Part shown: positions 1,946 to 37,900 of the stretch, in pieces | Numbering within the stretch: the first letter of the stretch is position 1 | How the letters are laid out: each line of letters opens with the position of its first letter | Virus record (IMG/VR): IMGVR_UViG_3300028025_000089 | Origin: a virus | Taxonomy: Duplodnaviria; Caudoviricetes | Direction: 5' to 3' (one strand) | Length of the DNA stretch: 64,000 nucleotides | The notes under the pieces: model-generated | What the model was told of the DNA's origin: nothing | The model's input: the letters and a program-made list of their open reading frames with translations, nothing else | Database searches by the model: none | Made by a program: the position numbers and the translations under genes

Positions 1946-1946
1946 A

Positions 1947-6700: not shown

Positions 6701-9700
6701 AACTTCGTGATATGTTTGTTCCAATTAATTTAATTAATGGTGGGGTATATCCTTCACCTAATGGGGCAAATTTAAAAATTAATACAAGTGCGGGTTACAT
6801 ATATGGTTTGGGTATTAATTTCGCATCGAATACATTAGAACCAAATTCATTATCAATATCAGGAACTAGTCCTTGCACATTTCAATATAGAACTCAAACA
6901 GGTGGGACGGTTACAAATGTTACTGATATTGATCCACTTAACTATGATGTTGGTGGAGTTAAAACACCAATAACAGGAACTAAAACAACAAACCAAAGAA
7001 TTTTTTTATTACAAAATGGTTCGTTTAGAATTCAATACGGTCAAAACGTTTATACCACATTTGCAGAAGCGGTTGCATCATTACAAACCGAATCATTCAC
7101 GGAATTCCCTAATTTTATTAACAATGCCGTTCTTATTGGAATCTTAACGGTGACATCGACCGCAACTGATTTAACGGATCCTGCAAAGGCAAGATTTTTC
7201 TTCGCATCCAAATTTGGTGAAACTGTAGGTGCTGCGGGAGGAGTGTCAACAACAAACTTACAACAGGCATACAACAACTCATCTCAACCTGAAATCACAA
7301 CTAATTCAACATTAGGTGCTGTTTCAATTAAAAGAGGTAGTGCTTCTGACGCTGATCATGTATTTGAAATTCAAGATGGTGCTGGTGTTGATAGAATGTT
7401 AGTTAATGGTTCAGGTAGAACAACAACGACAGATTTAACAATTACAGGTCTTACAGTTAATTCAGGATTGACAAGATTTTTAGTTGTCGATACAAGTGGA
7501 AACACATATTACAGAACAAGTGGTGCCGATGGAACATCGGGAACTAACGGGACATCAGGGACTAATGGAACTAGTGGTAGTTCAGGAACTAATGGTACAA
7601 GTGGAACCAATGGAACTAGCGGTAGTTCAGGGACAAATGGAACATCCGGCACAAACGGGACTAGCGGTTCTTCAGGGACTAATGGGACAAACGGGACATC
7701 TGGAACGAATGGCACAAGTGGAACAAATGGAACTAGTGGTTCTTCAGGAACTAATGGAACAAACGGCACATCAGGGACTAATGGAACATCTGGCACAAAT
7801 GGTTCTTCGGGGACTAACGGTAGTTCAGGAACAAATGGAACATCTGGCACAAACGGGACTAGCGGTAGTTCAGGAACAAACGGGACTTCAGGAACTAATG
7901 GCACAAGTGGAACCAATGGAACTAGCGGTAGTTCAGGCACAAATGGAACATCCGGCACAAACGGGACTAGCGGTTCTTCTGGAACCAATGGAACAAGCGG
8001 TAGTTCAGGCACAAATGGAACATCAGGATCTAGCGGAACTAATGGAACATCAGGAACTAATGGAACTAGCGGTTCTTCAGGCACAAATGGAACAAGCGGA
8101 ACCAATGGGACTAGCGGTAGTTCAGGAACAAACGGAACAAATGGAACTTCAGGGTCTAGCGGAACTAATGGAACAAACGGTAGTTCAGGCACAAATGGAA
8201 CATCAGGATCTAGCGGAACTAATGGAACCAATGGAACATCGGGAACAAACGGAACTAGCGGTAGTTCAGGGACTAACGGCACATCAGGAACAAATGGGAC
8301 AAGTGGAACTTCACCAACAGTTCCAGGATCAAATGACCAAGTATTAACTTCAAACGGGTCAGGTGGAATAGTTGCAGAATCTTTATTAACATTTGATGGA
8401 ACTAAATTAAGTATGTTATACCAATCAGGTGATGAAGGTGGTGAATTATTCTTAAACAAGGCGGTTACCAATACAACATTAAGTGGTGGAATTACAATAG
8501 ATTCATACCAAAATAAATTAAGATTTTTTGAACAAGGTGGAACTGCGAGAGGTGCGTATATTGATTTAACAGCATGTGCTGCCGGTGTTGGCACAAATTT
8601 ATTAAGTGGTGGTGGAACGACTAGTGGAACAAATGGAACATCGGGAACCAATGGAACATCGGGAACTAATGGAACAAACGGAACATCCGGCACTAATGGC
8701 ACAAGTGGAACTTCAGGATCTAGCGGAACTAATGGAACATCGGGATCTAGCGGAACTAATGGAACATCGGGAACCAATGGGACTTCAGGGTCTAGCGGAA
8801 CTAACGGAACAAGCGGAACCAATGGGACTAACGGAACAAGCGGTTCTTCAGGCACTAATGGAACTAATGGAACAAGCGGAACGAATGGAACTAATGGTTC
8901 TTCAGGAACAAACGGCACATCAGGGACAAACGGGACATCTGGCACTAATGGAACAAGTGGTTCTTCAGGGACTAATGGAACTTCAGGGACTAATGGGACT
9001 AGCGGTTCTTCAGGGACAAATGGAACATCGGGAACCAATGGGACTTCAGGGTCTAGCGGAACTAATGGAACATCGGGGTCTAGCGGAACTAATGGAACGT
9101 CAGGAACTAATGGAACAAGTGGTTCTTCAGGAACTAATGGAACTTCAGGAACAAATGGAACTTCAGGAACAAATGGAACTAGTGGTTCTTCAGGGACAAA
9201 CGGGACAAGTGGTAGTTCAGGCACTAATGGAACTAATGGTACAAGTGGAACTAACGGTAGTTCTGGAACTGACGGAACAAGCGGAACAGGATTTTCATCA
9301 ATTTCACCAACTACAAATGATAACATATTAACAGCAAACGGAACTTCAAATTCTGCAGATTCAGAACCAAATTTAACATTTGACGGAATAAATAATATTC
9401 TGAATGTAACGGGTAGAACCAACATGACAGACTCAACTGCAGCACCAGCACCTTCGTTAAGTATTGTAAGTAACCCAACAGTACCGGTTAAAAGAACAAT
9501 ATCTGTTACTAATTCAGGTGACGGTATAAATACAAATGATCTATTTGGAGTTCAAACATTAGTGACAGGTGCGGTTAATAGTGCAATTGGATACTCTACT
9601 GACGTTTCAGATGCCGTAGGAGAAAATATTGGTGTTGATATTATCAATGCTTCAAGTCAGTCAGGATCAACTCAATGGGGGTCAAGAACAAACGTTGTGA

Positions 9701-10725
9701 GTGCTGGACCAGATATTAAATATGGTCACTACACTTTATTGGCCAACGGAGGTAAAGATAATTATGGTAATTATAATCAAGTTTCTGACGGGACAAATTC
9801 AAACACAGCTTACTATGGTAATGTAACGGGAATTGTAAATAAATTTGGTTACGTATTACAAGGAACAAACTCTTCAGCAAAACCATCAGGTAGTGATACA
9901 CAATATGGTGTGTCTCTTACCGTTAATGGTGCAGGTAACACATCAAGCACACAAAAATACGGAGGTTACTTTGATGTAAGTGGGGATGCTAAAGGACATA
10001 GTGGTATATATACTAAAGCCCAAAGTGCCACCGCAGCTAATTATGGTGTTGAGGCATATGCCTCGGGTATATATGGAAATAATTATGGTATTTACGCTTT
10101 AAATGATACAGTAGTTAGTGGAGGTTTAGACGTTCAACATGGTGGGTATTTTGAATCCACTGGTTTTGGTGATGTAACATCAACAATAAAATATGGTGTT
10201 TTTGCGTCGGCTTCAAACACGTCACTTGAAAACTATGGTTTATTTACTCAAGCAAATGGTGGTGATAAAAATTATTCATTATATGCTGCCGCTGGTAGAT
10301 GGACATTAAGACACGACCCGAATGTCGAATTAGGTATAAGTGACCCTGAAGGTTATGGTGACATTGTATATTTTGGTGGTGGAGGAAGTTCATTTGCAGC
10401 CGGTGATGTTGTTTATTTAAACGCAACAGGTGATTGGTCACCAACAGATGCTGGTAATTCTGGTAACTCAACAAATATGTTAGCATTAGCTCTTGGTAAC
10501 AATGTGTCAGATGGACTTTTGATTAGAGGTTACGCATATTCAAGTAGTTGGAGTTGGACCATTGGTGCACCTTTATATTTGGTTTCTGGAACTGCAGGGG
10601 CTATGACAAATACAGCACCATCAAGTGGAGGTGACGTTGTTAGAATAGTTGCTTATTCTATAGACTCGGCAACAGGAGGAAAAAAAATATATTTTAATCC
10701 TGATAATAGTTGGACAATAGCTTAA
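3742..10725 (+). CDS. Giant modular virion fibre with four Gly-X-Y (GTS/GTN/GSS/GTD) repeat blocks and intervening globular domains
   Basis: 2327-aa ORF; strict Gly every third residue over about 1100 aa; C-terminal beta-rich domains typical of phage fibre tips. Confidence 0.75.
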   Translation: MPIYNRLTDRQKVSAVTLNDIFHVVVTGDTTQSPQGSSYYAPLSDLQSLLSGSTGPAGTSGTNGTSGTNGTSGTNGSSGINGTSGTNGSSGTNGSSGTNGTSGTNGTNGTSGISGSSGTSGSSGSSGSSGSSGTNGTSGTNGSSGTNGSSGTNGTSGTNGTSGTNGTNGTSGSSGTSGSSGTSGTNGTSGTNGSSGTNGTSGSSGANGTSGTNGTSGSSGTNGTSGTNGSSGSSGTNGTDGSSGSSGTNGTSGANGSSGTNGTSGTNGTDGSSGTNGTSGSSGTNGTSGSSGTSGTDGLTCINYTLSAPGPTDSQFTGTTCDGVQQTGNVASGTSYSDCFISGSVTMNNGGIITNNGICVGTSGTSGTNGTNGTSGTNGSDGTSGTNGTSGTNGTSGTNGTDGSSGINGSSGTNGTSGTNGTDGTSGLNGTSGTNGTSGTDGISGTNGTSGTNGSSGSSGTNGTDGTSGTNGTSGSSGTNGTDGTSGSSGTNGTDGTSGSSGTNGADGSSGTNGTSGTNGSSGTNGTDGTSGTNGTDGSSGSSGTNGTSGSSGTNGTNGTDGTSGTNGTDGTSGTNGTSGSSGTNGTDGTSGTNGTDGSSGTSGTNGTSGTNGTDGSSGTNGSSGTNGTDGTSGTNGTSGTDGTSGSSGTNGTSGTNGTSGTNGTNGTSGTNGSSGTNGTDGTSGTNGTSGSSGTNGTDGSSGTSGTNGTSGTNGTDGTSGTGFNTVQDPALTRVLTSDGTPNGAIAQSGLTYNGTQLTVTGLTYTSGVTSTSKITFPQITINSSYTATTNDYMIDVTGGTFTVSLPSAVGIQGRLLVVKNNGGGAVTVDPYGSETIDGKPFVILGETNSIQLASNGSEWVALGYNISTVNSSTGVFEFTGLTKVSNTTFNVARVKGWIVDDTTNPLSPQLYYVDFSGGTFTDNYVTTDFETFVYLTSGGTIGQQPTILTEQQRRQNIFLGKIGHPEKTSINLVFSQPDFVQSPLSQLRDMFVPINLINGGVYPSPNGANLKINTSAGYIYGLGINFASNTLEPNSLSISGTSPCTFQYRTQTGGTVTNVTDIDPLNYDVGGVKTPITGTKTTNQRIFLLQNGSFRIQYGQNVYTTFAEAVASLQTESFTEFPNFINNAVLIGILTVTSTATDLTDPAKARFFFASKFGETVGAAGGVSTTNLQQAYNNSSQPEITTNSTLGAVSIKRGSASDADHVFEIQDGAGVDRMLVNGSGRTTTTDLTITGLTVNSGLTRFLVVDTSGNTYYRTSGADGTSGTNGTSGTNGTSGSSGTNGTSGTNGTSGSSGTNGTSGTNGTSGSSGTNGTNGTSGTNGTSGTNGTSGSSGTNGTNGTSGTNGTSGTNGSSGTNGSSGTNGTSGTNGTSGSSGTNGTSGTNGTSGTNGTSGSSGTNGTSGTNGTSGSSGTNGTSGSSGTNGTSGSSGTNGTSGTNGTSGSSGTNGTSGTNGTSGSSGTNGTNGTSGSSGTNGTNGSSGTNGTSGSSGTNGTNGTSGTNGTSGSSGTNGTSGTNGTSGTSPTVPGSNDQVLTSNGSGGIVAESLLTFDGTKLSMLYQSGDEGGELFLNKAVTNTTLSGGITIDSYQNKLRFFEQGGTARGAYIDLTACAAGVGTNLLSGGGTTSGTNGTSGTNGTSGTNGTNGTSGTNGTSGTSGSSGTNGTSGSSGTNGTSGTNGTSGSSGTNGTSGTNGTNGTSGSSGTNGTNGTSGTNGTNGSSGTNGTSGTNGTSGTNGTSGSSGTNGTSGTNGTSGSSGTNGTSGTNGTSGSSGTNGTSGSSGTNGTSGTNGTSGSSGTNGTSGTNGTSGTNGTSGSSGTNGTSGSSGTNGTNGTSGTNGSSGTDGTSGTGFSSISPTTNDNILTANGTSNSADSEPNLTFDGINNILNVTGRTNMTDSTAAPAPSLSIVSNPTVPVKRTISVTNSGDGINTNDLFGVQTLVTGAVNSAIGYSTDVSDAVGENIGVDIINASSQSGSTQWGSRTNVVSAGPDIKYGHYTLLANGGKDNYGNYNQVSDGTNSNTAYYGNVTGIVNKFGYVLQGTNSSAKPSGSDTQYGVSLTVNGAGNTSSTQKYGGYFDVSGDAKGHSGIYTKAQSATAANYGVEAYASGIYGNNYGIYALNDTVVSGGLDVQHGGYFESTGFGDVTSTIKYGVFASASNTSLENYGLFTQANGGDKNYSLYAAAGRWTLRHDPNVELGISDPEGYGDIVYFGGGGSSFAAGDVVYLNATGDWSPTDAGNSGNSTNMLALALGNNVSDGLLIRGYAYSSSWSWTIGAPLYLVSGTAGAMTNTAPSSGGDVVRIVAYSIDSATGGKKIYFNPDNSWTIA
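3901..4635 (+). repeat. Gly-X-Y repeat block 1
   Basis: 9-nt units such as ggaactaat, ggaacatca, ggttcaagt; boundaries approximate. Confidence 0.9.
4821..5910 (+). repeat. Gly-X-Y repeat block 2 (rich in GTD)
   Basis: Same units plus frequent GTD; contains an exact duplication of about 60 nt (about 5530-5588 and 5836-5894). Confidence 0.9.
7521..8310 (+). repeat. Gly-X-Y repeat block 3
   Basis: Almost pure GTN/GTS/GSS; boundaries approximate. Confidence 0.9.
8611..9290 (+). repeat. Gly-X-Y repeat block 4
   Basis: Almost pure GTN/GTS/GSS; boundaries approximate. Confidence 0.9.
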
Positions 10726-10727
10726 AT

Positions 10728-13658
10728 TTAAAACTGTCTATTATCAATGTAGATAATAACTTCATTGTAGTATTCTATAAAATGTTCGTTCCATAAATCC
10801 CACTTTATGTTTACACCATCAATAGAATACACTTCAAAGTTATTAAACATTTGTAAAATATTATCTCTAAACCATCTGAACTTACATTCATGAAAGTTTT
10901 CATCGTTACGTAAATGAAACTCGGTAACAATTTTTGGGATTGTTTTTAAAAATTCTATATTAGATGGTTGAAACACATCGTATTCTCCCCCTTCACAATC
11001 ACACTTAAGAAAATCAATTTTATCAATTCCATTCTCATCTAAAAATTCTCTGAATGTAAAAGTAGGAACACTTTCACTAATTCCATCCCATGTAATGTCA
11101 ATTCTTTTTTTGTCAGTAATTGCACCCTGAATTATTTTGACATTATTTTTTCCAACGTTCCTTTTTAAAACTTCTATTTGATATGATAATGGCTCAACAA
11201 CAAAACATTGTTTTGGATTGTTCGGTAAAATTGAATACGTGAATGGTCCTAATGATGCACCTAAATCAACAACAATATCACCCTCTTCTACGGTAAAACA
11301 TCTATCATATATGTTATGATCTTCAATTTCTTTAATTGCGGCCTCACTATACCAATTAGTTTTTCCTCCCCAATCAAAACCATCTAATTTATTTTTTTTC
11401 TCAATAACTTGTTCTTTATTCATAATCTTATTTATTTCTTTTATCACCATGTCTGATGTTATTTTTTTGGAACATTCAAATTGACGATCAGTTCCTTTAT
11501 GAAGTGGACACCAATTCCAATCACCAGCGTTTAATCTATCATTATTAAAACATCCATGACATACGTCTTCATTTATAACTCTATATGTGTCTAACTTTGT
11601 TTCTGCAAATTTTTCACTAAACCCTGAAATTAAAATGACGGGTAATTCACATGCCCAAGCCAACCAAGATAAGCCTGAACCTAACCCAATGAAAAACTCA
11701 CAAGTTGATAAATCATCAATTACTTCTTGTAAATTACCACCTTTATATATTGTAACTCCTTTTGGGTAAAAATTATTCATATACCCATCACCTTCTTTAG
11801 AATAGATCATACATTCATAACCTAATGCATCAAGATGATCTATAACGGACTGCCACCCATCAGGATTGTTCCAATACTTTGCCTGTGCGGTTGAATGAAA
11901 TCCAATACCAACTTTTTTCTTTTTTGGGGTGTTTGGTAATTTAAGTTTTGGTCTAATCTCTTTATATTCTAATCCCAAAATATCCGTTGCTGTTTTTTGT
12001 AATGGCTGTCTTTTAAAATCAAAAGGATGTTTATTAAAATCAAATTCCCCATTTTCGTTGTAATACCAACCAAGTTGATATTGAGCGATTATATTATATA
12101 CCGTTTCACCTGGATCAACAAATTCAATATTTGGGTATTCATTTTTAAATAATGAATTCATAAATGTGGATACGATCAACTCGCAATTGTGTTTTTTTCT
12201 AAACTCCTCACAATATGGAATCCAAGCCAACGTGTCACCAAGAGATTTTGAACCGAAAGAAATATAAACTCTTTTGTTTTCAAGATTCAAAACATTTGAA
12301 TAAATAACATTTTTGTTTTCTTTTATTTCGGTTTTCCATTTTGTGTAATATTGTCTATTAACTTTAACCCAAGAATTGATTTTAATATTATTGTTATAAA
12401 TAATATTTTCTTGTTCATCAAAAAAGGTAATCTCAAAGTTTGAATCGTCATCCCCTGTTATTTCAATAAAAGGATTTACAACAAAATGATTATTTATCTT
12501 GCATGATTTTGTTATTGGATTATTTATTGTTTTTGTTACATTTTTAACTTCTTTATAAAAATCTAATAACTCTTTTTTAAAATCCCTTTCATTATTTATT
12601 TCATAAGTTTCATTTGAATTTAATAACTCAAGTAAGGTATTTTTTATGTCGTTGTAATCGTTTGATTTGATTGGTGTAATATACTTGTCAAACATTCCAA
12701 CATATTGTGGTAGATTTCTTGTCATTATTTTCATTCCATAGTTAATAGATTCTCTAATAACCAAAGGATTACATTCCCAAGTTGAGTTAAACATTAAAAC
12801 ATCACAGGCTTTCATAAATGTATCAACATCATCTCTTTCACCCCACACCGTAACATTCTTTGGTAAATCATCCATTATTGGTTTCCAATAATTTTCAAAG
12901 TTTGACGCTTGGTTTCCAATAAAATGAAAATGTAAATCAGGGTGAGTATCTTGTAATAATCTTGCAACTTCAATACCCTCCTTTTGATTTTTACCTTCAG
13001 TCCAAAGACCGACATTTAAAATGTGTGTTTTTGTAATTGGGATGTTTAATTTTTCTCTTTCTGTTATTTTTTTTAATAATGGAACTCTATGTGATTGATC
13101 AACTATACTAAGGTCATTTAGTATATCACTTACCTTATCTTCCAATGGATATTCCCAAACTTTCTTTGGTGTATCAAGTTTGTTAAATTGACTTGTCAAA
13201 TGATAAGGGGTGACTAAAGAATAATAGTCAGGGTGTAGTTTTTTATTTGTATTTCCATTAAACCAAATGTTATGACAAGTCTCAACAATTCTCCACGTTC
13301 TATCATTATCATATAATTGGTTAAGTAGATCTAAAGGAATTTTATTAAAACTTTCAAACCCTTCCGGTATTTCTTCAATATGGACAATATCAATTTCATT
13401 TTCCTTTATAATATCAATTAGTTGATATTTTTTTTCAGGTTCTGTAAACCAACCTAATGTGAAAAAATGATTTGAATCAAGTAAGTCAATTATCTTATTT
13501 CTTTGAACTATGTATGTGTCACTAAACTGCGAATATTCTACAAGAAAAACTTCAATTTCATTTTTATATTCCAATAAAGATTCAATTCTCTTTAATACGA
13601 ATTGTGGCATCCCTCCTGTTGATAAATGGGGAACAACATACATTAATTTTATTTTCAT
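10728..13658 (-). CDS. Three-domain enzyme: GT4-like glycosyltransferase + Aah/TibC-like (autotransporter O-heptosyltransferase) domain + FkbM-type methyltransferase
   Basis: N-term VVPHLSTGGMPQ...NVGLWTEGKNQ...FNSTWECNPLVIRE (GT-B); middle KSLGDTLAWIPY, QPLQKTATDILGL, FFIGLGSGLSWLAWA and C-x2-C-x13-C-x11-C (VCHGCF...WCPLHKGTDRQFEC); C-term VVDLGASLGPF, VVEP, LKCDCEGGEY. Confidence 0.8.
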   Translation of the reverse strand: MKIKLMYVVPHLSTGGMPQFVLKRIESLLEYKNEIEVFLVEYSQFSDTYIVQRNKIIDLLDSNHFFTLGWFTEPEKKYQLIDIIKENEIDIVHIEEIPEGFESFNKIPLDLLNQLYDNDRTWRIVETCHNIWFNGNTNKKLHPDYYSLVTPYHLTSQFNKLDTPKKVWEYPLEDKVSDILNDLSIVDQSHRVPLLKKITEREKLNIPITKTHILNVGLWTEGKNQKEGIEVARLLQDTHPDLHFHFIGNQASNFENYWKPIMDDLPKNVTVWGERDDVDTFMKACDVLMFNSTWECNPLVIRESINYGMKIMTRNLPQYVGMFDKYITPIKSNDYNDIKNTLLELLNSNETYEINNERDFKKELLDFYKEVKNVTKTINNPITKSCKINNHFVVNPFIEITGDDDSNFEITFFDEQENIIYNNNIKINSWVKVNRQYYTKWKTEIKENKNVIYSNVLNLENKRVYISFGSKSLGDTLAWIPYCEEFRKKHNCELIVSTFMNSLFKNEYPNIEFVDPGETVYNIIAQYQLGWYYNENGEFDFNKHPFDFKRQPLQKTATDILGLEYKEIRPKLKLPNTPKKKKVGIGFHSTAQAKYWNNPDGWQSVIDHLDALGYECMIYSKEGDGYMNNFYPKGVTIYKGGNLQEVIDDLSTCEFFIGLGSGLSWLAWACELPVILISGFSEKFAETKLDTYRVINEDVCHGCFNNDRLNAGDWNWCPLHKGTDRQFECSKKITSDMVIKEINKIMNKEQVIEKKNKLDGFDWGGKTNWYSEAAIKEIEDHNIYDRCFTVEEGDIVVDLGASLGPFTYSILPNNPKQCFVVEPLSYQIEVLKRNVGKNNVKIIQGAITDKKRIDITWDGISESVPTFTFREFLDENGIDKIDFLKCDCEGGEYDVFQPSNIEFLKTIPKIVTEFHLRNDENFHECKFRWFRDNILQMFNNFEVYSIDGVNIKWDLWNEHFIEYYNEVIIYIDNRQF

Positions 13659-13711
13659 CTAAAAAAAAATAATTTATTCATATTATTTGTGTAGTATCTT
13701 ACTATTAGTTT

Positions 13712-14638
13712 GTGAAAGAAATTTGTTTAGACATATCAGATTGTAGAGCGTTAGGTGATACTTTATGTGCAACCCCAACGATTAGAAAACTATATCACTC
13801 TTATGGAAAAAAAATTTCTGTAATCACACATTATCCTGAATTGTTTTATAACAATCCATATGTTTTAGAAATTTTTGATAATTCAAAAAATAAAGAAGAA
13901 TTATCAGATCATGAAATTTTTTCAACTTTCGACATTTCATACAAAGAAAATGGTGTTTGTAATAAACATAACACAATTGATATTAGACAATTTCACGCAA
14001 TTAATCTTGGGTTTATGTTAACCAAAAATGAGATGACCTTAGATTATTTTCCAAATGATGTGTCATTACCTGATCTACCAAAAAAATATGTTTTAATTCA
14101 TCCCGTTCAAAATTGGGAATCAAGAACTTGGCCAATAAAAAATTGGCAAATGTTAACACAGTTGTTAAATGAAAAAGGGATTCATGTTATTTCTGTTGGT
14201 AAAGATTCTTCTGAATTGGGAGGGTCTAATGTTGATAAACCTGTTTTTGATTTTCCAATTAAGTTGGGATATAACTTAATGAATCAAACTTCAATAGATC
14301 AAACTTGGCATTTAATAAATAATAGTTCTTGTTTTGTGACTATGGATTCGGGTCTTTTACATTTAGCGGGAACAACAGATGCCGAAATAATACAATTAGG
14401 AAGTTCAATCGATCCTGAGTTTAGATCACCATATAGAAATGGTAGTCAAGAATATAAGTATCATTATGTTAGTGGTGGTTGTGGTTTACATTGTGCCTCA
14501 GATATGAAATATGGTGTTCGTGAGTGGGGATCAATACAAGGTATACCTTCTTTAGTAAAATGTTTAGAAAGAAAAGAAACTTTTGAATGTCACCCAAATA
14601 TCTTATCGGTATACAATAAAATTTTAGAAATAGTTTAA
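13712..14638 (+). CDS. GT9-like (heptosyltransferase family) glycosyltransferase with Cys cluster
   Basis: ALGDTLCATP, LIHP...WESRTWPIKNW, FVTMDSGLLHLAG, and C-x3-C-x22-C-x8-C near the C-terminus; GTG start. Confidence 0.8.
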   Translation: MKEICLDISDCRALGDTLCATPTIRKLYHSYGKKISVITHYPELFYNNPYVLEIFDNSKNKEELSDHEIFSTFDISYKENGVCNKHNTIDIRQFHAINLGFMLTKNEMTLDYFPNDVSLPDLPKKYVLIHPVQNWESRTWPIKNWQMLTQLLNEKGIHVISVGKDSSELGGSNVDKPVFDFPIKLGYNLMNQTSIDQTWHLINNSSCFVTMDSGLLHLAGTTDAEIIQLGSSIDPEFRSPYRNGSQEYKYHYVSGGCGLHCASDMKYGVREWGSIQGIPSLVKCLERKETFECHPNILSVYNKILEIV

Positions 14639-14655: not shown

Positions 14656-14955
14656 ATGCCAAACATAGTTCAAATTAATTCTTTATCGGGAACGGCACCT
14701 TTTGATTTATATGTGTGTGATCAAACAATTTCATATTGTTTTTTTGTTGCGAGCATTTCAGGATCACCATATACATTTGATGTTCCACCCCCATTAGATT
14801 CAACAACACCAATTATATTAAAAGTTATTGATGCAAATAACTGTGAGGTAATATATCTATTATCTTGTGGTGAAATTTATATTAAAGAATTTGAAGGGTT
14901 TGAAGTGTTCTTATTTCAGGATGCAAATGTATTTATATTTGAAGGTCCACCTTAA
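14656..14955 (+). CDS. Small Cys-containing beta-rich protein, probable virion accessory
   Basis: 99 aa, beta-strand pattern, preceded by TATTTAT at 14644; function is inference. Confidence 0.4.
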   Translation: MPNIVQINSLSGTAPFDLYVCDQTISYCFFVASISGSPYTFDVPPPLDSTTPIILKVIDANNCEVIYLLSCGEIYIKEFEGFEVFLFQDANVFIFEGPP

Positions 14956-14992
14956 CAATTTACTATTGAGATGTCTATAATATTTTTGTTTT

Positions 14993-16237
14993 ATGAAAAT
15001 ATTTGTTCAAATCGCGTCGTATCGCGACCCTCAGCTTATACCAACAATAGAAAATATGTTGGAGAATGCCAAAAGACCAAAAAACATTGTAATTGGTGTG
15101 GCAAGACAATTTCATCCTGAAGATGGTTTTGATGATCTATCCAAGTATGAAAAAGATAAAAGATTTAGAATCCTAAATATTCCTTACACAGAATCAAAAG
15201 GAGTTTGTTGGGCAAGACATCAAGTTCAACAACTATATGGTGGTGAAGAATATACCCTTCAGATCGACTCTCACATGAGATTTGAAAAGAATTGGGATGA
15301 CGAAATGATTAAAATGATTAAACAACTTCAAAAGAAAGGTCATAAGAAACCTTTATTAACGGGGTATGTTTCATCTTTTGATCCTGAAAACGATCCTGCA
15401 GGTAGAGTTACTGAACCATGGAGAATGGTTTTTGATAGATTCACTCCTGAAGGTGTTGTATTCTTTTTACCTGAAACTATTCCAGGTTGGAAAGAAATGA
15501 AAGAACCAATTCCGGCAAGATTCTATTCTGCACATTATTGTTTTACGTTAGGTGAATTTTCAACCGAAGTTCAACATGATCCTGAATTTTATTTTCACGG
15601 AGAAGAAATTTCAATTTCAGTAAGAGCATATACTCACGGTTATGATTTATTCCACCCACATAAAGTTCTTGTATGGCACGAATATACAAGAAAAGGTAGA
15701 ACAAAACAATGGGACGATGATAAAGAATGGCATTTAAGAAATACCGCATGTCATATTAAAAACAGACAACTTTTAGGAGTTGATGGTGAAACGTTTAATG
15801 GTGATTACTCTGAATGGTTTGGAACTGAAAGAACCGTTCAAGATTACGAAAAATATGCTGGTATTCGTTTTGAAACAAGAGGGATTCAACAAGAAACAAT
15901 AGATAAAAAATATCCACCAAACACATATAATTTTGAAACCGAACAAGATTGGAAAAATTCATTCTCAACAATTTTCAAACATTGTATTGATATAAACTAT
16001 GTTAGTGTTCCTGAAAAAGATTATGAATATTGGGTAGTTGCTTTCCACGATGAAAATGACGAAACATTATATAGAAGAGATGCCGACATTAATGAAATCA
16101 ACGGATTCTTCAGAGACCCTGATGGGTATTGTAAAGTGTGGAGAGAATTCAACACAACTAAAAAACCTAAGTATTGGGTTGTATGGCCTTACTCAACTTC
16201 TAAAGGATGGTGTGATCGATTAACAGGAAATTTATAA
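14993..16237 (+). CDS. GT60/GlcNAc-family (Skp1 Gnt1-like, polypeptide GlcNAc-transferase-like) glycosyltransferase
   Basis: IFVQIASYRD, SKGVCWAR, LQIDSHMRFEKNWD, FHGEEIS, RAYTHGYDLFHP are hallmarks of this GT-A family. Confidence 0.8.
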   Translation: MKIFVQIASYRDPQLIPTIENMLENAKRPKNIVIGVARQFHPEDGFDDLSKYEKDKRFRILNIPYTESKGVCWARHQVQQLYGGEEYTLQIDSHMRFEKNWDDEMIKMIKQLQKKGHKKPLLTGYVSSFDPENDPAGRVTEPWRMVFDRFTPEGVVFFLPETIPGWKEMKEPIPARFYSAHYCFTLGEFSTEVQHDPEFYFHGEEISISVRAYTHGYDLFHPHKVLVWHEYTRKGRTKQWDDDKEWHLRNTACHIKNRQLLGVDGETFNGDYSEWFGTERTVQDYEKYAGIRFETRGIQQETIDKKYPPNTYNFETEQDWKNSFSTIFKHCIDINYVSVPEKDYEYWVVAFHDENDETLYRRDADINEINGFFRDPDGYCKVWREFNTTKKPKYWVVWPYSTSKGWCDRLTGNL

Positions 16238-16241
16238 TAAC

Positions 16242-17819
16242 ATGGCAAATATTTCGTTTTACGGTTCCCACAATGCCGCTGTAGTTGTGGAGGATCAAGG
16301 AAAAATTATTACAGTAATAGAGGTAGAAAGATTTTTAACTCAAAAAAATGCAGGTTATTCACAATATTTAGTATCATATTCAAGACCTTTTTTATTAAAA
16401 CATATTATACAATATATTAAAGATGAGTTTGGTATTTCTGAATTTGATAAATGTTATTACTTAAATTCTGATACGGTAGAAGGATCTGAAAAAGTTCATT
16501 ATCAAGAATTAATACCAGCAAAAGAATACATCAATTCATTACACCATTTAAGTCATGCTGCTTGCGGATTCTATCAAACGGATTATAATGAAGCGTTAAT
16601 CATTTCTTTTGATGGTGGAGGTAATGACGGGTTCTTCAATGTTTATCACGCTGAAGATAGAAATAACATAAATGTAGTTGAGAAATTCAATATTGATTTA
16701 GGATTTCCATATATGTCATTTGGTGATTACTTGGGTGACATTACAAAAGAACCGGCACTTAATATTGGTAATTTAGTTTATGCAGGAAAAATAATGGGTC
16801 TTTGTTCGTATGGAAATGTGAACGAAGAATGGTTACCACATTTTGAGGAATACTATAGAAGAAAACCAGATGGTTTAAATTACTTACAATACCTACAAGA
16901 ACTTAGTGAACAAACAGGTTTATCATTTGATATGGAAAATCGAATGTCAGGTCAGTTAGGGTGGGATGTTGCTAAGACATCACAAATTGCATTTGAGAAT
17001 GTTTTTATGGAATTGGCTCAACCGTTTTTAGATCAATTCCCTAATATTCCTTTGATTCTTGTTGGTGGATGTGCGTTAAATATCTTGTTAAACACAAAAT
17101 TACACCAAGAACTTAATAGACCTGTGTTTGTTCCACCAAATCCTAATGATTGTGGAATTGCAACAGGTATGATGTTAAATCACATTAAACCTGAAAAGGC
17201 AATTGATATTACTTATGCGGGTATTGGTATTTTAGACAAACACACATTAATGTCTCATGTAGAAGAACGACACGCTCTTCCTCTTAAAACTGAAATGTTA
17301 GTTGATGATTTAGTAGATGGTAGAATTGTTGGGGTTGTCAGAGGTAATGCCGAACATGGACCAAGAGCTTTAGGAAATAGAAGTATTATTTGTAATCCAG
17401 CCTACGAAAACATGAAAGACATTTTAAATGCAAAAGTAAAAAATAGAGAGTGGTATAGACCATTTGCGCCTGTTTGTAAATTAGAAGATGTATCTAAATA
17501 TTTTAATTTCGAAGGTGAGAGTAAATGGATGGGATTTTGCCCAACGGTAAAAGAAGAATGGAGAGAAAAATTAGTTTCAATTACACATGTTGACGGGACT
17601 GCGAGAGTTCAAACAGTTACAGAAGAACAAAATCCTTGGTTATATAATTTATTAACCGAATTTGAGAAAAAATCAGGAATTGGTGTTTTATTAAACACAT
17701 CTTTCAATGTAAACGGAAAACCAATTCTTTCTCGATATAGTGATGCGATTTGGGTTTATGATAAAACAGAAATGGATTGTCTTTTATTAGGTGATTATTA
17801 TTTTAGAAAAAGAGCATGA
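16242..17819 (+). CDS. O-carbamoyltransferase, NodU/CmcH/TobZ family
   Basis: SHNAAV, EVERF, HHLSHAACGF, DGGG, GGCALN, EHGPRALGNRSI, KNREWYRPFAP, HVDGTARVQTV, LLNTSFNVNGKPI. Confidence 0.92.
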   Translation: MANISFYGSHNAAVVVEDQGKIITVIEVERFLTQKNAGYSQYLVSYSRPFLLKHIIQYIKDEFGISEFDKCYYLNSDTVEGSEKVHYQELIPAKEYINSLHHLSHAACGFYQTDYNEALIISFDGGGNDGFFNVYHAEDRNNINVVEKFNIDLGFPYMSFGDYLGDITKEPALNIGNLVYAGKIMGLCSYGNVNEEWLPHFEEYYRRKPDGLNYLQYLQELSEQTGLSFDMENRMSGQLGWDVAKTSQIAFENVFMELAQPFLDQFPNIPLILVGGCALNILLNTKLHQELNRPVFVPPNPNDCGIATGMMLNHIKPEKAIDITYAGIGILDKHTLMSHVEERHALPLKTEMLVDDLVDGRIVGVVRGNAEHGPRALGNRSIICNPAYENMKDILNAKVKNREWYRPFAPVCKLEDVSKYFNFEGESKWMGFCPTVKEEWREKLVSITHVDGTARVQTVTEEQNPWLYNLLTEFEKKSGIGVLLNTSFNVNGKPILSRYSDAIWVYDKTEMDCLLLGDYYFRKRA

Positions 17820-18712: not shown

Positions 18713-21091
18713 ATGGAAGATTTTTTTGATAAGGTATTACACTATTATGGCAGAAAGGGCCAAAAACTATTTATGATCAACATTGGTGCCATGGACGGTG
18801 TTATGTTTGATAGTATGAGCGGTTATGCTCAAATATACAATTCAGATGTATTATATGTTGAACCAATGAAACCTCATTTTGAAAGATTGGTAGAACATAA
18901 AAGTAATAACCCTGGAAATAAATTTGAAAATTCGGCGATTAGCGATTTCAATGGGACTATTACTATGAAAACAATTCCAATTGAGGTTGTTGACGAAGGT
19001 TTAGTTCATCCTGCTTTTTATGGTATGAGTGTGATTGATCCTACTAAAAATGGTATGGGTAGTGAAGGTGACAGAGAGGTTGTTGAAAAATATGCCGTTG
19101 ATGTTGAGGTAAATTGCATCACATGGGATACTCTTGTTCAAAGACACAATATAGAACATTTTGATGTGTTGTCAGTGGATACTGAAGGACATGATTATAC
19201 AATTTTTAAACAAATTGATTTACAAAAATTTAGACCTAGTCTGATTAGATTAGAGTGGTGTAATATGACTGATGAAGAAAAAACTAACATTACAAATAAA
19301 TTTACAGATGCTGGATATGTTTATGAAATATTAGGTAATATGGATATTGATGCAATTAGAAAAGATGTTTACGATGAAATAGAATTATCTTTAAATCCTG
19401 TAAAACCAAAAGAAGAAAAATCAAAATCAAGACTTACCATTGTTACTGGTTTATGGAACATTAAAAGAGAAGAATTAAGTGAAGGTTGGTCAAGATCTTA
19501 TGAACACTACTTAGAAAAATTTTCACAGTTATTAGATACATCTTGTAATATGATAATTTTTGGTGATTCAGAATTAGAAAGTTTTGTTTTTTCTAAAAGA
19601 AGTCATGAAAACACACAATTTATTAATAGACCACAATCGTGGTTCAAAGGAGAATTCTATGATAAAATTCAAGAAATTAGAACAAATCCTGAATGGTATA
19701 ATTTGGCAGGTTGGTTAAAAGACTCCACACAGGCTAAATTAGAAATGTATAATCCGCTTGTAATGTCAAAAATGTTTTTATTACACGATGCGGTTATATT
19801 AGATAAATTTGATTCTCAAAAATTATTTTGGTTAGATGCTGGAATTACAAACACAGTGAATCCAGGTTATTTCACACATGATAAAGTTTTAGATAAGGTG
19901 GAAAATTTATTTGATCGTTTCACATTTGTTGCATTCCCTTACGAAGCAGACAAAGAGATTCATGGATTTGATATTGACGCAATGACCGAAATGGTTGGTC
20001 AAAGAGTTAATAAAGTTTGTCGTGGAGGTTTCTTTGGTGGATCTAAACCAATGATTAGAGAAATGAACACTCTATATTACGACTTAATGAAAACTACTTT
20101 AAGTAGAGGTCTTATGGGAACTGAAGAAAGTTTGTTTTCAATTATGACATATACAAACCCAAACAATATTGATTATGTAGAAATTGAGTCTAATGGGTTA
20201 TTATATAAGTTTTTTGAGGACGTTAAAAACAATAATGTAGAAATTAAAAGTTTTAGAAAGGGAACCCCAACCAAAGTTAGAAATGGAGATGTTGGTTTAT
20301 ATGTAATTACATTCAACAGTCCTAAACAATTTGAGACGTTAATTAATTCTATGTATGCTTATGATGAAGATTTTATTCATAAAACAAAGAAATTTTTATT
20401 AGACAACTCAACTGATTTATCTACCACACCAAAATATTTGGAACTGTGTGAAAAATATGGTTTTGAACACATCAAGAAAGATAATATAGGTATTACGGGA
20501 GGTCGTGTGTTTGTTGCCGAACATTTCCACGAATCAAATATGGATTACTATATGTTCTTCGAAGATGATATGTTTTTCTACAATGGACAAGATTTTACTT
20601 GTAAAAATGGGTTTATGAGAAAAACTAAAAATTTATACGAAAAAGTTTTACAAATTTCTAAAAAAGAAAATTTTGATTTCTTAAAATTTAACTTTACAGA
20701 ATTTTATGGTAGTCATGAAAAACAATGGGCGTGGTATAATGTTGATCAAGAGTATAGAAATACTATTTGGCCTGATAACCCAAAACTTCCTGTAAACGGT
20801 CAAGATCCAAATGCTCCTTATTTAGAATATAAAAATATTAAATCATATGAAGGGACACCTTACGCCACGGGTGAAGTTTATTTATCAAATTGGCCGATAA
20901 TTTTATCTAAAGAAGGAAACTACAAATGTTATATTGAAACTAAATACACCTATCCTTACGAACAAACTTTAATGTCACATTGTTATAAAGAAATGAAGAA
21001 AGGAAAAATACATGCGGGAGTTCTTCTTATGACACCAACCGAACACGATCGTTTCGAGTTTTATGAAGGTGGGTTAAGAAAAGAATTTTAA
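18713..21091 (+). CDS. Fusion: FkbM-type methyltransferase + HtrL/YibB-like domain + GT-A (GT2-like) domain
   Basis: INIGAMDG/VEP/VDTEGHD (FkbM); LTIVTGLWNIKR...FWLDAGI...GGFFGG (HtrL-like); LYVITFN...MFFEDDM (GT-A DxD). Confidence 0.7.
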   Translation: MEDFFDKVLHYYGRKGQKLFMINIGAMDGVMFDSMSGYAQIYNSDVLYVEPMKPHFERLVEHKSNNPGNKFENSAISDFNGTITMKTIPIEVVDEGLVHPAFYGMSVIDPTKNGMGSEGDREVVEKYAVDVEVNCITWDTLVQRHNIEHFDVLSVDTEGHDYTIFKQIDLQKFRPSLIRLEWCNMTDEEKTNITNKFTDAGYVYEILGNMDIDAIRKDVYDEIELSLNPVKPKEEKSKSRLTIVTGLWNIKREELSEGWSRSYEHYLEKFSQLLDTSCNMIIFGDSELESFVFSKRSHENTQFINRPQSWFKGEFYDKIQEIRTNPEWYNLAGWLKDSTQAKLEMYNPLVMSKMFLLHDAVILDKFDSQKLFWLDAGITNTVNPGYFTHDKVLDKVENLFDRFTFVAFPYEADKEIHGFDIDAMTEMVGQRVNKVCRGGFFGGSKPMIREMNTLYYDLMKTTLSRGLMGTEESLFSIMTYTNPNNIDYVEIESNGLLYKFFEDVKNNNVEIKSFRKGTPTKVRNGDVGLYVITFNSPKQFETLINSMYAYDEDFIHKTKKFLLDNSTDLSTTPKYLELCEKYGFEHIKKDNIGITGGRVFVAEHFHESNMDYYMFFEDDMFFYNGQDFTCKNGFMRKTKNLYEKVLQISKKENFDFLKFNFTEFYGSHEKQWAWYNVDQEYRNTIWPDNPKLPVNGQDPNAPYLEYKNIKSYEGTPYATGEVYLSNWPIILSKEGNYKCYIETKYTYPYEQTLMSHCYKEMKKGKIHAGVLLMTPTEHDRFEFYEGGLRKEF

Positions 21092-21117: not shown

Positions 21118-21624
21118 ATGGAATTTTTCATTAAGAAAGGTGCGACCCTTCCTGTTTTAAAAATCAACGTTATTAAAGACGGTAGATCTGACTATGATAG
21201 AACTATGCGGTATTTAGAAGAGACCGACATATTTTTTTCTATGGTCGATACTGAAACAGGTATACCAAAGTTTACATCAAGACCTGCGGGTGTGATGAAA
21301 AAAGAACAATTAAATACAAACCTTCAAACGGAGTATTATGTTTATTATCAATTCACACCTAACGACACAAAAAAAGTTGCAAGATACAAAGGTCAATTTC
21401 TTTTTAGAAATGAAACAGGTTATTTAATACTTCCTTTAAATCAAGAAATATATGTAAATGTTACTGATAGTTTTATAATAAATGATTTTGAATATCAAAG
21501 TTGTTATGTTGTAGATTTTCCTTGTTGTAAATCACAACCTGTTCCACCACCAATTCCTCCAATACCAACAACCACAACATCAACCATACCAACAACCACA
21601 ACATCAACCATAACCGGTTTATAA
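21118..21624 (+). CDS. Virion accessory protein (BppU-N-like beta domain) with Pro/Thr-rich tail, paralogue 1
   Basis: MEFFIKKGATLPVLK...YYVYYQF...YKGQF; tail PVPPPIPPIPTTTTSTIPTTTTST. Confidence 0.5.
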   Translation: MEFFIKKGATLPVLKINVIKDGRSDYDRTMRYLEETDIFFSMVDTETGIPKFTSRPAGVMKKEQLNTNLQTEYYVYYQFTPNDTKKVARYKGQFLFRNETGYLILPLNQEIYVNVTDSFIINDFEYQSCYVVDFPCCKSQPVPPPIPPIPTTTTSTIPTTTTSTITGL

Positions 21625-21664: not shown

Positions 21665-22468
21665 ATGGAATTTACTATAGGTCAAAACTCTACGCTCCCT
21701 CTTTTAAAATTACAGGTTGTAAAGGATGGGATCAGTGATTACGAGTCCATGATGAATTTTATTGAAACCTCATCGATATTTTTTTCGATGACAAACATTG
21801 AGACTGGTGTTTTAAAAATAAATGCTAAGGCAGCAAGTTTTGTTGAAAAATTAGAGTTAAACCCAAATGCTAGTCCTGAGTATTACGTTTATTATAAATT
21901 CACACCTCAAGATACAAACAAAGTTGGAAGATATGAAGGTCAGTTTGTTTTTATAAATGAAACAGGAACATTAGTATTACCAATTAGAGAAAAGTTATAT
22001 ATTAATATACTTGAAAGTTATATGTCAAATGATTTGGTATATAATAATTGTTATGTTTTGGATTATAGATGTTGTGTAACACCTTTCCCAACAAACACAC
22101 CAAGTCAAACTCCATATCCTATTTTGAGTATGACCCCTACTCAAACACCTACTCAAACACCTACACCAACAGTAACACCTACAAACACATCCACACCTAC
22201 AGTAACACCTACAAACACATCCACACCTACTCAAACATTAACACCAACGGTAACACCAACAAATACATTTACGTCCACCCAAACGGTAACACCAACAAAT
22301 ACTCAAACAGTAACACCAACAAATACTCAAACAGTAACACCAACTCAAACACCTACCCCAACTCCAACACCAACTCAAACACCAGCGGTCGTTGTATTAA
22401 TCAATCCAATAATAACCGAAAATGATGAATATATTATCGTTGGTAATAATGAATATTTAAAATTTTAA
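21665..22468 (+). CDS. Virion accessory protein with mucin-like TPTQTPT stalk, paralogue 2
   Basis: [15 protein letters not shown]...YYVYYKF...YEGQF, clearly paralogous to 21118..21624; about 85 aa of T/P repeats. Confidence 0.5.
22130..22385 (+). repeat. Thr-Pro tandem repeats (30-nt and 24-nt units)
   Basis: acagtaacacctacaaacacatccacacct twice (22169-22228); gtaacaccaacaaatactcaaaca twice (about 22286-22333). Confidence 0.9.
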
Positions 22469-30896: not shown

Positions 30897-30897
30897 T

Positions 30898-31326
30898 CTA
30901 TTTTGACATTTCAAACATAATTATATCTGATTCTTTATAGTATGGACCTATGTTTGTTTGATAAGTAACGGTTGCTTTGTATTCACCCGATTCTAACGGT
31001 CTATAAATATTTGAGTTTGAGTCCGCAATTGGTTCATTATTTAATAACCAAACCCATGTTAATGATGTTACGGTTATTGGAAATTGCGTTGGGGACATAA
31101 CAATTAAATCGGAACCATCAATCATAACATCTAATCTGTTACCAAACACTAAAGATAATAAAGCATTTTTAAGTCCATCTATTTGTTCTTGTAATGTTAC
31201 ATCTACCTGATCGTTTATTGAATCTTCAGTAGATATTTTAGTTTCTAATGATTCGTCAATAGAATCTAATGAACTAAGATCTTCACTTAATCCATCAATT
31301 TGACTTTGATCTAATTTTGTTGGCAT
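30898..31326 (-). CDS. Small virion accessory protein: short coiled coil + Ig-like domain
   Basis: WVWLLNNEPIADSNSNIYRPLESGEYKATVTY resembles an Ig-like strand pattern; TATTTAT upstream. Confidence 0.5.
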   Translation of the reverse strand: MPTKLDQSQIDGLSEDLSSLDSIDESLETKISTEDSINDQVDVTLQEQIDGLKNALLSLVFGNRLDVMIDGSDLIVMSPTQFPITVTSLTWVWLLNNEPIADSNSNIYRPLESGEYKATVTYQTNIGPYYKESDIIMFEMSK

Positions 31327-34995: not shown

Positions 34996-37900
34996 ATGGC
35001 AACTAACAGTAAAGTTTTCGTTTCACCCGGTGTGTATACTTCTGAAGTCGACCTTAGCTTTGTAGCACAAAGTGTGGGTGTAACTACATTAGGTATTGTC
35101 GGTGAAACTTTAATAGGTCCAGCATTCGAACCTATCTTCATCACAAATTTCGATGAATTCCAAACCGTATTCGGCGGAACATCACCTGAAAAATTTGTAA
35201 ACACACAAATTCCAAAATACGAGGCATCATATATTGCTAAGGCATATCTTCAACAATCAAACCAATTATTTGTAACGAGAATTTTAGGTTTATCAGGTTA
35301 TGACGCAGGTCCATCTTGGTCAATAGCCACCGTTGCAAACGTCGATCCTTCAACGATTGGTGTTTGGTGTTTAAGTTCAGTTACTGATGTATACACTTGT
35401 GAAACTATTTGTGCAATTCCTAACGAAGTAACATACTTAGTAAGTTTTACTGGATGTAACAATAGCACTTCATCAATAACATATACTTCATTATTTCCTG
35501 ACGATATTCAAAACATTATAAATGATCAATTTGAACAATTCAATGGAAATGTTTCAACATTAGATGCACAAATTAAAAACTTAATTTTTGACGTTATTAC
35601 AGATTCAGATCCGTTTACAGCAGAAGATGAATTCATTTCTTACTTTGGTTCAGTAAGTAGTAATGATTACAACGCTTTAACAAATGCTGGATGGACGGCA
35701 GCAACAAATGTGTTTAATGTTCCTTCGGTTTCTTTAGATGATACGAATTTGTTGTCTCCATTGAATGATCCATGGTATTATGCATTATTTACTAACACAG
35801 GAAATACAAACTATAGTGGTTTTTCATTCTATACTTTCGTTTCAGGTTTAACTTTAAACCCTGTAACAACTACAACAACAATTCACACATCAACAACGAC
35901 CACCACAACTAACCCTTGTGCAACTCCAGTACCAAATCCATCTACAACAACGACAACAACATTACCTCTTAATTGTTATACAGGTCAATTAGTTGTTAAA
36001 TTATTCTACTATACGGGAACATCATTTAGTGATTATGATAATGTAGTAGTGGGATCTTTAAGATCGAGAGGTGTCTCAACATATACAACATCCACTAATC
36101 CTACTTATTCAGTTACTGGAACATCAGATGTAACATTAAACATGTCGGGTCAATATTCATCAGTTCTTAAAAATCCATACGCAACGTTTGGTGTAAATGT
36201 TACTGATAAATTTGGAACTAACTATACCTTTGAAACTTCATTTACACAAAATGATCCTGAATATTGGACAAAGGTGTTTGGTGTAACTAATTTCCAAAAA
36301 CCAAGAATTGAAGTTCCTGTATTTGCAGAAGAAAACTTCCAATCATGGTTGAACTTCGCTTGGAGAAAAGGATATATTAGAGGTCTTAACCCTAATTTAA
36401 TTGCACTTGAATCGGCTCAAAGTGGTGATCCAAACTCAATTGGTTGGTATTTAGATAGATGGCAAACACCATCATCACCATTTGTTGTTTCAGAATTAAG
36501 AGGTAATAAAGTTTATGACTTATTTAGATTCTACACAATTTCTGACGGTGACGGAGCTAACACGTTAATAAAAATTTCAATTGTAAATCAAACTTATAAT
36601 AATTTAACTTTTGACGTATTAATTCGTGATTATTTTGATACAGATGCAAATCCTGTTGTTCTTGAGAAATTTACAAACTGTACAATGGACCCAGGACAAA
36701 ACAACTATATTGGAAATAAAATCGGAACATTAGATGGTGAATACTTATTGAATTCTAAATATGTTATGGTTGAGATGTCTGAAGACGCTCCGATTGACGC
36801 ACTTCCTTGTGGATTTAACGGATTCAACTTTAGAAATTATGCAGGTGCACAATCTCCGTTCCCAATTATTAAAGGTAAATACGATTTCCCTGGTGAAGTT
36901 ATTTATAACCCACCATTTGGTTTATCAACAGGTAATGACGACGCATTAGTTAGTCCGGGAGATAATGTTAGAAGAACTTATTTGGGTATTTCTAACTCTT
37001 ACGGATGGGACCCTGCATATTTTGAATACATCGGGAAAAGAAATCCTGTAAATTCTTGTGATATAGATGGATTACCATTCAATTACAGATCTGCTGGTTT
37101 CCACATGGATGTAAACGCAAGTGGTTTAACAATCGGACCTGAGTTCTCAACGGCCGGTGACCAAAGATTTATCTGTGGTAATTCACCATTTATTACAGAA
37201 CCTGAATTACCAACAAACGCTTACTATAGATTGTTCGCTCGTAAATTTACTTTATTAGTTCAAGGTGGATTTGACGGATGGGACATTTATAGAGAATACA
37301 GAACCATCGGTGATGAATTCCAAATCGGTAGACGTGGATACTTAAACGGAGCTTGTCCTTCAACAAGATACCCACAAGCAACGGGTTGGGGAGCATTTAA
37401 AGAAATTTCTTTAGGTGACGGAACTCAAAACTTTGCAAATACTGACTACTACGCATATCTATTAGGTCAACAAACATTTGCAAACCCTGAAGCGACAAAT
37501 ATTAACGTATTTGTTACACCGGGTATTGATTATGTTAATAATAGTAACTTAGTGGAGGCTGCGGTTGAAATGATCGAATTCAATAGAGCTGACTCATTAT
37601 ATGTTTGTACAACACCTGATATTGATTTGTTTACACCATCTTCAAGTGGAATTGATTTGTTTATCTACCCAACTGAAGCAGTAAATAACTTAGAAGATAC
37701 AGGAATTGACTCTAACTATACCGCAACTTACTATCCGTGGGTATTAACAAGAGATAGTGTGAACAACACACAAATCTATATTCCACCGACAGCTGAGGTT
37801 ACAAGAAACTTAGCGTTGACAGATAACATCGCGTTCCCTTGGTTCGCAGCGGCGGGTTACACTCGTGGTATTGTTAACTGTATCAAAGCTCGTAAGAAGT

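Follow-up and report, generated by a model that had tools for sequence, protein, structure and literature searches.

A GT60-family glycosyltransferase with an additional C-terminal domain in a tailed phage, and threonine/proline-tract proteins as its candidate acceptors

The window analysed here is a 64,000-nucleotide stretch of DNA from a tailed virus (Caudoviricetes; IMG/VR record IMGVR_UViG_3300028025_000089), and the gene under study is the uninterrupted open reading frame (ORF) at positions 14993..16237. Its product is a genuine member of glycosyltransferase (GT) family GT60 with an extra domain typical of the phage enzymes, encoded in a conserved glycan-tailoring module. On the evidence of sequence and predicted structure, I consider it somewhat more probable than the contrary that this enzyme would initiate O-linked N-acetylhexosamine (O-HexNAc) glycans on threonine/proline (Thr/Pro) tracts of the phage's own proteins.

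An earlier note on this DNA, made from the letters alone, had described the protein as GT60-like, and this assignment is borne out by family, fold and motif. Pfam PF11397 ('GlcNAc'), the match that the note had anticipated, and a family centred on the GT60 enzyme Gnt1, covers residues ~2–294 (E 8.2e-71, 239.7 bits against a cut-off of 21). It was the sole family reported by the Pfam scan of the protein, which gave no match to the GT27 families. In PHROGs, phrog_24687 ('glycosyltransferase') spans the whole protein (E 1e-168). The two quoted motifs, IFVQIASYRD and QIDSHMRF, were located at residues 3–12 and 90–97 respectively. In an alignment of 45 two-domain homologues, 34–48% identical to the protein, residues D92, H94, H229, E204, E205, R75, R211 and a few others are invariant. 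The GT27/GT60 hallmark DxH is formed by D92-S93-H94, with the invariant H229 downstream. Only GT27 and GT60 have DxH where DxD would otherwise stand, and the two families have a way of glycosylating Ser/Thr in polypeptides in common (PMC7185993).

When the PDB was searched by sequence, neither the protein nor the profile of the 45 sequences gave a match, and I therefore relied on comparison of folds. An AlphaFold model was obtained from the 45-sequence alignment, with a predicted local distance difference test (pLDDT) score of 95.7 and a predicted template-modelling (pTM) score of 0.90. Its best match among Swiss-Prot models is Dictyostelium Gnt1 (E 2.4e-24, TM score 0.65, 24% identity, residues 2–311), which leads the next fold match by 13 orders of magnitude; all the others listed are polypeptide N-acetylgalactosamine (GalNAc) transferases. 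Among solved structures, Foldseek ranks GT27 polypeptide GalNAc-transferases in all of the first 33 places, and no solved GT60 chain was found among the structural matches. With VIA-align, 29 polypeptide GalNAc-transferase entries score between Z 19.6 and 22.6 over ~275 aligned residues, at 11–15% identity, whereas generic GT-A enzymes (chondroitin and heparosan synthases, SpsA, TarP) reach at most Z 18 over ~220 residues, TarP ranking 50th at Z 16.1. Judged by structural-alignment offset, D92, H94 and H229 would map to the metal-ligand positions of GalNAc-T2. The nearest folds are all polypeptide transferases, and not a non-protein glycosyltransferase, the outcome that the earlier note had set against its own proposal.

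Neither the Pfam match nor the fold match to Gnt1 extends over residues ~312–414. Modelled alone from 36 homologues, these residues form a seven-strand beta-sandwich at a pLDDT of 93.4, and the claim of an extra C-terminal domain is upheld, as this region folds confidently by itself. The best matches among 48,161 chains are fibronectin type III (FN3) domains (Z 7.5, root-mean-square deviation 2.7, 78 residues aligned), a score that in this model indicates a fold class and not homology; since the matches are of fold class only, no function is readable from them. The domain does not fold as a ricin-type beta-trefoil lectin domain of the GT27 type. It is kept in more than 35 homologues at 20–38% identity, including those of the Xanthomonas jumbo phage XacN1 and of the Stenotrophomonas phage RAS14, and may dock the protein acceptor.

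No signal peptide or hydrophobic (transmembrane) segment was found in the GT60 protein, nor in P0001 and P0002, two tract proteins encoded downstream (Table 1). Because it lacks both, the enzyme should act in the host cytoplasm. It would be a soluble, Mn2+-dependent, retaining GT-A enzyme active during infection, transferring a HexNAc, probably N-acetylglucosamine (GlcNAc) from the host pool of uridine diphosphate (UDP)-GlcNAc, to hydroxyls of Thr (or Ser). Phage proteins would receive it on their extended Thr/Pro-rich linkers and tails, before or during assembly, and the FN3-like domain may help to hold the acceptor. In the window the sites would be the tails of both P0001 and P0002 together with the poly-Thr insert in the tail sheath, and in relatives many fibre-like DUF285 proteins. 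Extension, methylation and carbamoylation of the sugar would follow, by the downstream carbamoyltransferase and FkbM-HtrL fusion, and here also by the GT9 and GT4 enzymes. The analysis established the family, fold, catalytic motif and solubility of the enzyme, the conserved module of genes, and the statistical link with Thr/Pro tracts; I infer the donor, the acceptor, the order in which the enzymes act and what the C-terminal domain does.

The tracts named in the earlier note are present: PTTTTST occurs twice in P0001, P0002 carries a (TPTx)n stalk, and the poly-Thr insert of the sheath occupies residues 286–322 (nt 35851–35961). A tract scan of five random large viral contigs (700 kb) found nothing, so the tracts of the window are far beyond chance. 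Across the P0001/P0002 family (43 related loci), an N-domain of ~135 amino acids always ends in a CC motif, and is followed by nothing, by a Thr-rich tail, or by a poly-Thr/TPT linker to extra domains, the added part reaching 650 amino acids. The N-domain falls in viral-only Atlas clusters, with a weak BppU_N lead. No homologue of it was found in XacN1 or RAS14, and the candidate acceptors therefore differ among lineages.

The motif TATTTAT, often as GTATTTAT, lies 11–54 nt 5' of 16 of the 39 window genes, where about one is expected by density. These include the genes at 21118, 21665, 22492, 34996, 39345, 42656 and 3742; the motif precedes the sheath, tube and neck genes, a collagen-like giant, and P0001 and P0002, in both of the latter by 20 nt. 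It may serve as a late or structural promoter element. It is not found upstream of the GT60 gene, and the window genes make no use of the T4 late motif TATAAATA in their upstream regions. By the motif held in common with structural genes, and by the weak BppU_N lead, P0001 and P0002 are candidate virion proteins. The description of all these acceptors as virion proteins therefore stands for the tail sheath, which was verified, while for P0001 and P0002 it becomes a candidacy.

The link between enzyme and tracts extends beyond the window. IMG/VR was scanned for DNA encoding TPTxTPTxTPT, and the parent records were searched for PF11397, with 78 records drawn by an arbitrary 14-mer as controls. 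PF11397 was present in 17 of 76 pattern-bearing viral records and in none of the 78 controls (Fisher p = 2e-6); scaled per base, 8.9 such records would be expected among the controls. Restricted to contigs of at least 40 kb, the counts are 15/39 and 0/20 (p 0.001). In the forward direction, the pattern was found in 45 of 50 GT60-selected records, which belong to one clade and are hence non-independent, against 0 of 50 random records, and a reversed control pattern gave 0. A protein-level scan identified 11 tract ORFs in G002 (a 272 kb relative, 91% complete), 15 in XacN1 and 10 in RAS14, or 260–490 tract residues per 100 kb, and none in five random GT60-negative contigs of 115–169 kb (GC content 28–61%). 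In RAS14 the exact DNA pattern has zero matches in spite of its 10 tract ORFs, so the DNA pattern undercounts. The association of GT60 with Thr/Pro-tract proteins is significant and spans several lineages.

The tract proteins of G002 are mostly multi-domain proteins with TPT linkers between multiple copies of DUF285 (BspA-like leucine-rich repeat), at L090:13829-19432, L093:1216-7134 and L093:12774-15416, and a TPT-linked protein of 880 amino acids ends 60 bp before the GT60 gene start. Three of the XacN1 tract ORFs belong to the tail module, next to the sheath genes. This phage also provides a precedent for the proposed modification. Its ORF334 and ORF333 are a 46% identical two-domain GT60 enzyme and the carbamoyltransferase that follows it, in a phage that is GC-rich and of another host and lineage. 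Purified XacN1 virions showed at least two Schiff-stained glycoprotein bands, which its authors credited, as a proposal, to two phage glycosyltransferases, ORF328 (GT9) and the GT60 homologue ORF334 (PMC5852040).

A number of observations weigh against the proposed action on tracts. I know of no prokaryotic or viral GT60 enzyme with demonstrated transfer, donor or acceptor, and the GT9 and HtrL families, both represented in the window, are best known for synthesis of the lipopolysaccharide (LPS) core. Twelve of the 17 positive records belong to the clade of the window (60–78% identity), leaving five distant ones (27–38%); with that clade collapsed to one, the contrast becomes 6/65 against 0/78 (p 0.008). 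At 100 kb and above it is slim (10/16 against 0/5, p 0.035). Shared ancestry inflates the association and is not fully removable from the statistics. Only three of nine near-complete (≥90%) tract-selected records carry GT60, and since the other six do without it, the tracts do not need the enzyme. Many P0001/P0002 homologues in GT60-positive relatives have no Thr tail and stop at CC; the tails are modular, and so no fixed partner of the enzyme. Among the candidate acceptors, the tail sheath is the sole verified virion protein. Lastly, the glycoprotein bands of XacN1 were never linked to ORFs (PMC5852040). The suggestion made in the earlier note, of O-HexNAc on tracts of virion proteins, thus gains from the comparative association and from the XacN1 precedent, while its virion part holds for the sheath.

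The GT60 gene heads a tight co-directional run comprising the carbamoyltransferase, an ORF of 295 amino acids, the FkbM-HtrL/YibB fusion, P0001, P0002, an ORF of 618 amino acids and the DNA polymerase (Table 1). The 295-residue product has no Pfam or PHROG match. In metagenomic relatives with an 88% identical GT60 protein, on contigs of up to 299 kb, the order is GT60, carbamoyltransferase, HtrL, P0001, P0002, polymerase, with an HtrL_YibB protein of 553 amino acids in the place of the fusion, and without the collagen-like giant and the GT4/GT9 block beside GT60. The pair of GT60 and carbamoyltransferase genes is also found in XacN1 (46% identity), where it is followed by further family-less ORFs and a GT9 gene, and in RAS14 (43%). 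In the nearest record GT60 was not found, but this is a 35 kb fragment and hence uninformative. The sigma-70-like sequence before the GT60 gene is the best match of its region and a lead only, in scans whose promoter and terminator counts were not above shuffled expectation.

Table 1. Positions in the window of the GT60 gene, its candidate acceptors and the neighbouring features.
Feature	Position	Strand	Evidence and remarks
GT60-family glycosyltransferase, 414 amino acids	14993..16237	+	PF11397, fold, DxH; GT-A domain ~1–311 and C-terminal FN3-like domain ~312–414
C-terminal domain of the GT60 protein, seven-strand beta-sandwich	15914..16237 (residues 308–414)	+	Domain model, FN3 matches
P0001, 168 amino acids, candidate acceptor	21118..21624	+	Translation, tract scan; N-domain to CC, then PPPIPPIP(TTTTST)2 tail (141–168)
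P0002, 267 amino acids, P0001 paralogue, candidate acceptor	21665..22468	+	Translation, tract scan; (TPTx)n stalk 154–242
Tail sheath, 1111 amino acids, candidate acceptor	34996..38331	+	phrog_23 E 1e-51; tblastn to annotated sheaths
NodU/TobZ-type carbamoyltransferase	16242..17819	+	Carbam_trans_C E 1e-62, Carbam_trans_N E 1e-21; 4 nt past the GT60 stop
ORF of 295 amino acids	17816..18703	+	Tight co-directional run; 4-nt overlap with the carbamoyltransferase stop
FkbM methyltransferase-HtrL/YibB fusion, 792 amino acids, glycan-tailoring candidate	18713..21091	+	Methyltransf_21 E 3e-14, HtrL_YibB E 2e-11
GT9 (heptosyltransferase-like) glycosyltransferase	13712..14638	+	Glyco_transf_9 E 6e-17; absent there in L001-L004
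GT4-GT9-FkbM methyltransferase triple fusion, 976 amino acids	10728..13658	-	Pfam; absent there in L001-L004
Proline-free Gly-X-Y (Gly-Thr/Ser-X) collagen-like giant, 2327 amino acids	3742-10725		
Sigma-70-like promoter candidate just 5' of the GT60 start	14952..14981	+	TTAACA-18-TATAAT, 11/12; lead only

The block at 3742-14638, which comprises the collagen-like giant, the GT4-GT9-FkbM fusion and the GT9 gene, is absent at this place in relatives that share its flanks, a pair of DUF2827 genes on one side and GT60 on the other, and looks like an insertion or rearrangement. The two tandem DUF2827 proteins, encoded at 743-3095 on the minus strand (E 3e-95 and 9e-74), stand beside the glycosylation module in all relatives. 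The relatives also have a small ORF adjoining GT60, homologous to positions 14656-14955 of the window, which bears a long TPT tail; the window ORF is on the opposite strand and has lost the tail.

The company of GT9 heptosyltransferase-like, HtrL/YibB, GT4 and FkbM enzymes, which is typical of LPS/O-antigen loci, would fit a different acceptor. The GT60 enzyme could act on a sugar or a lipid-linked acceptor, as a step in polysaccharide synthesis that alters, for instance, the host LPS or capsule, and its link to the tracts would then reflect common descent of large phages. The six near-complete tract-bearing phages without GT60 fit this, and no acceptor is known for a prokaryotic GT60. However, all the nearest folds are those of polypeptide transferases, and the polysaccharide GT-A enzymes score clearly lower; the protein has no membrane segment; there is no flippase, polymerase or undecaprenyl-type enzyme among the annotated neighbours; and the tract link repeats in GT60 lineages just 27–46% identical. 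A saccharide or lipid-linked acceptor therefore appears unlikely.

The fold points to a protein acceptor without saying which, and the target could instead be the capsid, the collagen-like giant, or a host protein modified in the course of takeover. Gnt1 has just one target residue, in one protein; a folded partner could be docked by the FN3-like domain; and the window encodes a Gly-Thr/Ser-X giant. On the other hand, relatives that retain the module have no such giant next to GT60, the conservation of the tailoring enzymes speaks for an elaborate structural glycan and not a regulatory switch, and the genome-wide association with tracts would be left unexplained. I regard another protein acceptor as unlikely, and retain the Thr/Pro tracts as the preferred target.

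The carbamoyltransferase next to GT60, and the DNA polymerase gene near the module, also bring to mind DNA hypermodification, in which hydroxymethylated pyrimidines would be glycosylated and carbamoylated. Phage carbamoyltransferases can produce 5-carbamoyloxymethylcytosine (PMC8670742), and DNA glycosylation by phage GT-A enzymes is possible (bioRxiv 10.1101/2023.12.21.572611). Nevertheless, in the MetaGPA study the DNA-modifying carbamoyltransferases adjoin Asp177 homologues of thymidylate synthase (TS), and carbamoyltransferases flanked by glycosyltransferases sat on unmodified contigs (PMC8670742). The sole TS homologue in G002 lies ~170 kb from the module and appears to have His147 and Asn177, as read from the CH and PFNIASY motifs and not via an alignment. 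The GT-A enzymes acting on DNA resemble the base-J glucosyltransferase and TarP, have R..DDD..EDY/F in place of DxH, and are encoded next to a C5-MT/5mYOX or hydroxymethylase gene (bioRxiv 10.1101/2023.12.21.572611), whereas TarP is only the 50th match of the GT60 protein. With its DxH motif, this rank of TarP, and a TS homologue so distant and apparently of the Asn177 type, I do not place the enzyme among the phage DNA-glycosylating GT-A enzymes, and an acceptor in DNA seems very improbable. A search for Tet_JBP gave no match, and its controls were likewise without match. The TS homologue itself (L088:1486-2757, at 253–254 kb) has 423 amino acids with large insertions, and may be a ThyA or a dUMP hydroxymethylase.

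Compared with characterised enzymes, the closest is Gnt1 (Q8T1C6), the Skp1-hydroxyproline alpha-GlcNAc-transferase of Dictyostelium discoideum, which shares the Pfam family and is the nearest reviewed fold. Both are soluble and cytoplasmic, as predicted for the phage enzyme, and have the DxH motif; the FN3-like domain of the phage enzyme is unmatched in Gnt1. Gnt1 acts on just one hydroxyproline, in one protein, and depends on a prolyl hydroxylase. As the nearest reviewed relative is a hydroxyproline GlcNAc-transferase, and the tracts are rich in proline, the phage enzyme could similarly act on hydroxyprolines formed within them by a prolyl 4-hydroxylase. Yet the poly-Thr tracts of P0001 and of the sheath contain few prolines, and no PF13640 hydroxylase was found in G002, XacN1 or RAS14, in a search that recovered this family in three control genomes and did not cover other 2-oxoglutarate-dependent oxygenase families. 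Because PF13640 is missing there although the controls matched, a hydroxyproline acceptor is disfavoured, and I consider it highly improbable. Having no PF13640 partner in these three phages, the enzyme was not assigned to the Skp1-type pathway.

Other GT60 members are nearer to the proposed action on threonine. TcOGNT2 of Trypanosoma cruzi and Gnt2 of Dictyostelium attach the first sugar of mucin-type O-glycans to Thr residues of Thr-rich repeats. The T. cruzi enzyme requires Mn2+ and was assayed on KPPTTTTTTTTKPP (PMC3769586), an acceptor whose sequence much resembles the phage tails. Compared at family level, these protist enzymes are membrane-bound in the Golgi, whereas the phage enzyme is predicted to be soluble, in the bacterial cytoplasm, and has the added beta-sandwich. 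The animal and Toxoplasma polypeptide GalNAc-transferases of GT27 are the closest solved structures, with the DxH...H metal site and a two-domain layout in common, but their second domain is a ricin-type beta-trefoil. The FN3-like domain in its place, the 11–15% identity, and a Pfam result confined to PF11397 exclude the phage protein from GT27.

Among phages, a parallel is offered by mycobacteriophages. In cluster F1, glycans on capsid proteins are made by phage enzymes, and in Che8 and its relatives phage glycosyltransferases decorate the phage's own structural proteins with a glycan shield (Freeman et al. 2023, cited by PMC11256854 and PMC12582341). They differ from the present system in host, in type of phage and in the modified protein, which is the major capsid protein.

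Viral GT60 enzymes as such are not new, since uncultured tailed phages, Megaviridae and Pandoravirus already have automatic annotations of PF11397-type enzymes. To my knowledge, the function of GT60 is known from protists only, with no acceptor assigned to any bacterial or viral member, and glycosylation of phage virions has been demonstrated essentially in mycobacteriophages only. The proposed activity would, if confirmed, be the first function for a GT60 enzyme on the prokaryote side. It would account for many Thr/Pro stalks of large aquatic and soil phages, have a bearing on phage stability, adhesion and immune recognition, and possibly supply a simple soluble enzyme with which to engineer glycosylation in the bacterial cytoplasm. 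The family is large, with over 7,400 close metagenomic relatives and 4,592 clusters at 50% identity; were the tract linkers glycosylated, mucin-type protein O-glycosylation would be a widespread phage trait.

More tentatively, and with a little less than even confidence, several large environmental phage lineages may run a complete cytoplasmic mucin-type O-glycosylation of their own. In such a pathway, a soluble GT60 enzyme with an FN3-like docking domain would start HexNAc on Thr within the Thr/Pro linkers that join parts of fibres, sheath and decoration proteins, and conserved partner enzymes would make of it a methylated and carbamoylated glycan, giving virions a bottle-brush glycocalyx.

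Two further observations were made. Five metagenomic proteins of 1,600–2,460 amino acids (P0126, P0127, P0129, P0134 and P0136) contain up to four tandem GT60 domains. At 28752-30914 (minus strand) of the window, an ORF has a homologue of 733 amino acids in the relatives, a larger fusion in which Fe/Mn superoxide dismutase domains (PF00081, PF02777) are found.

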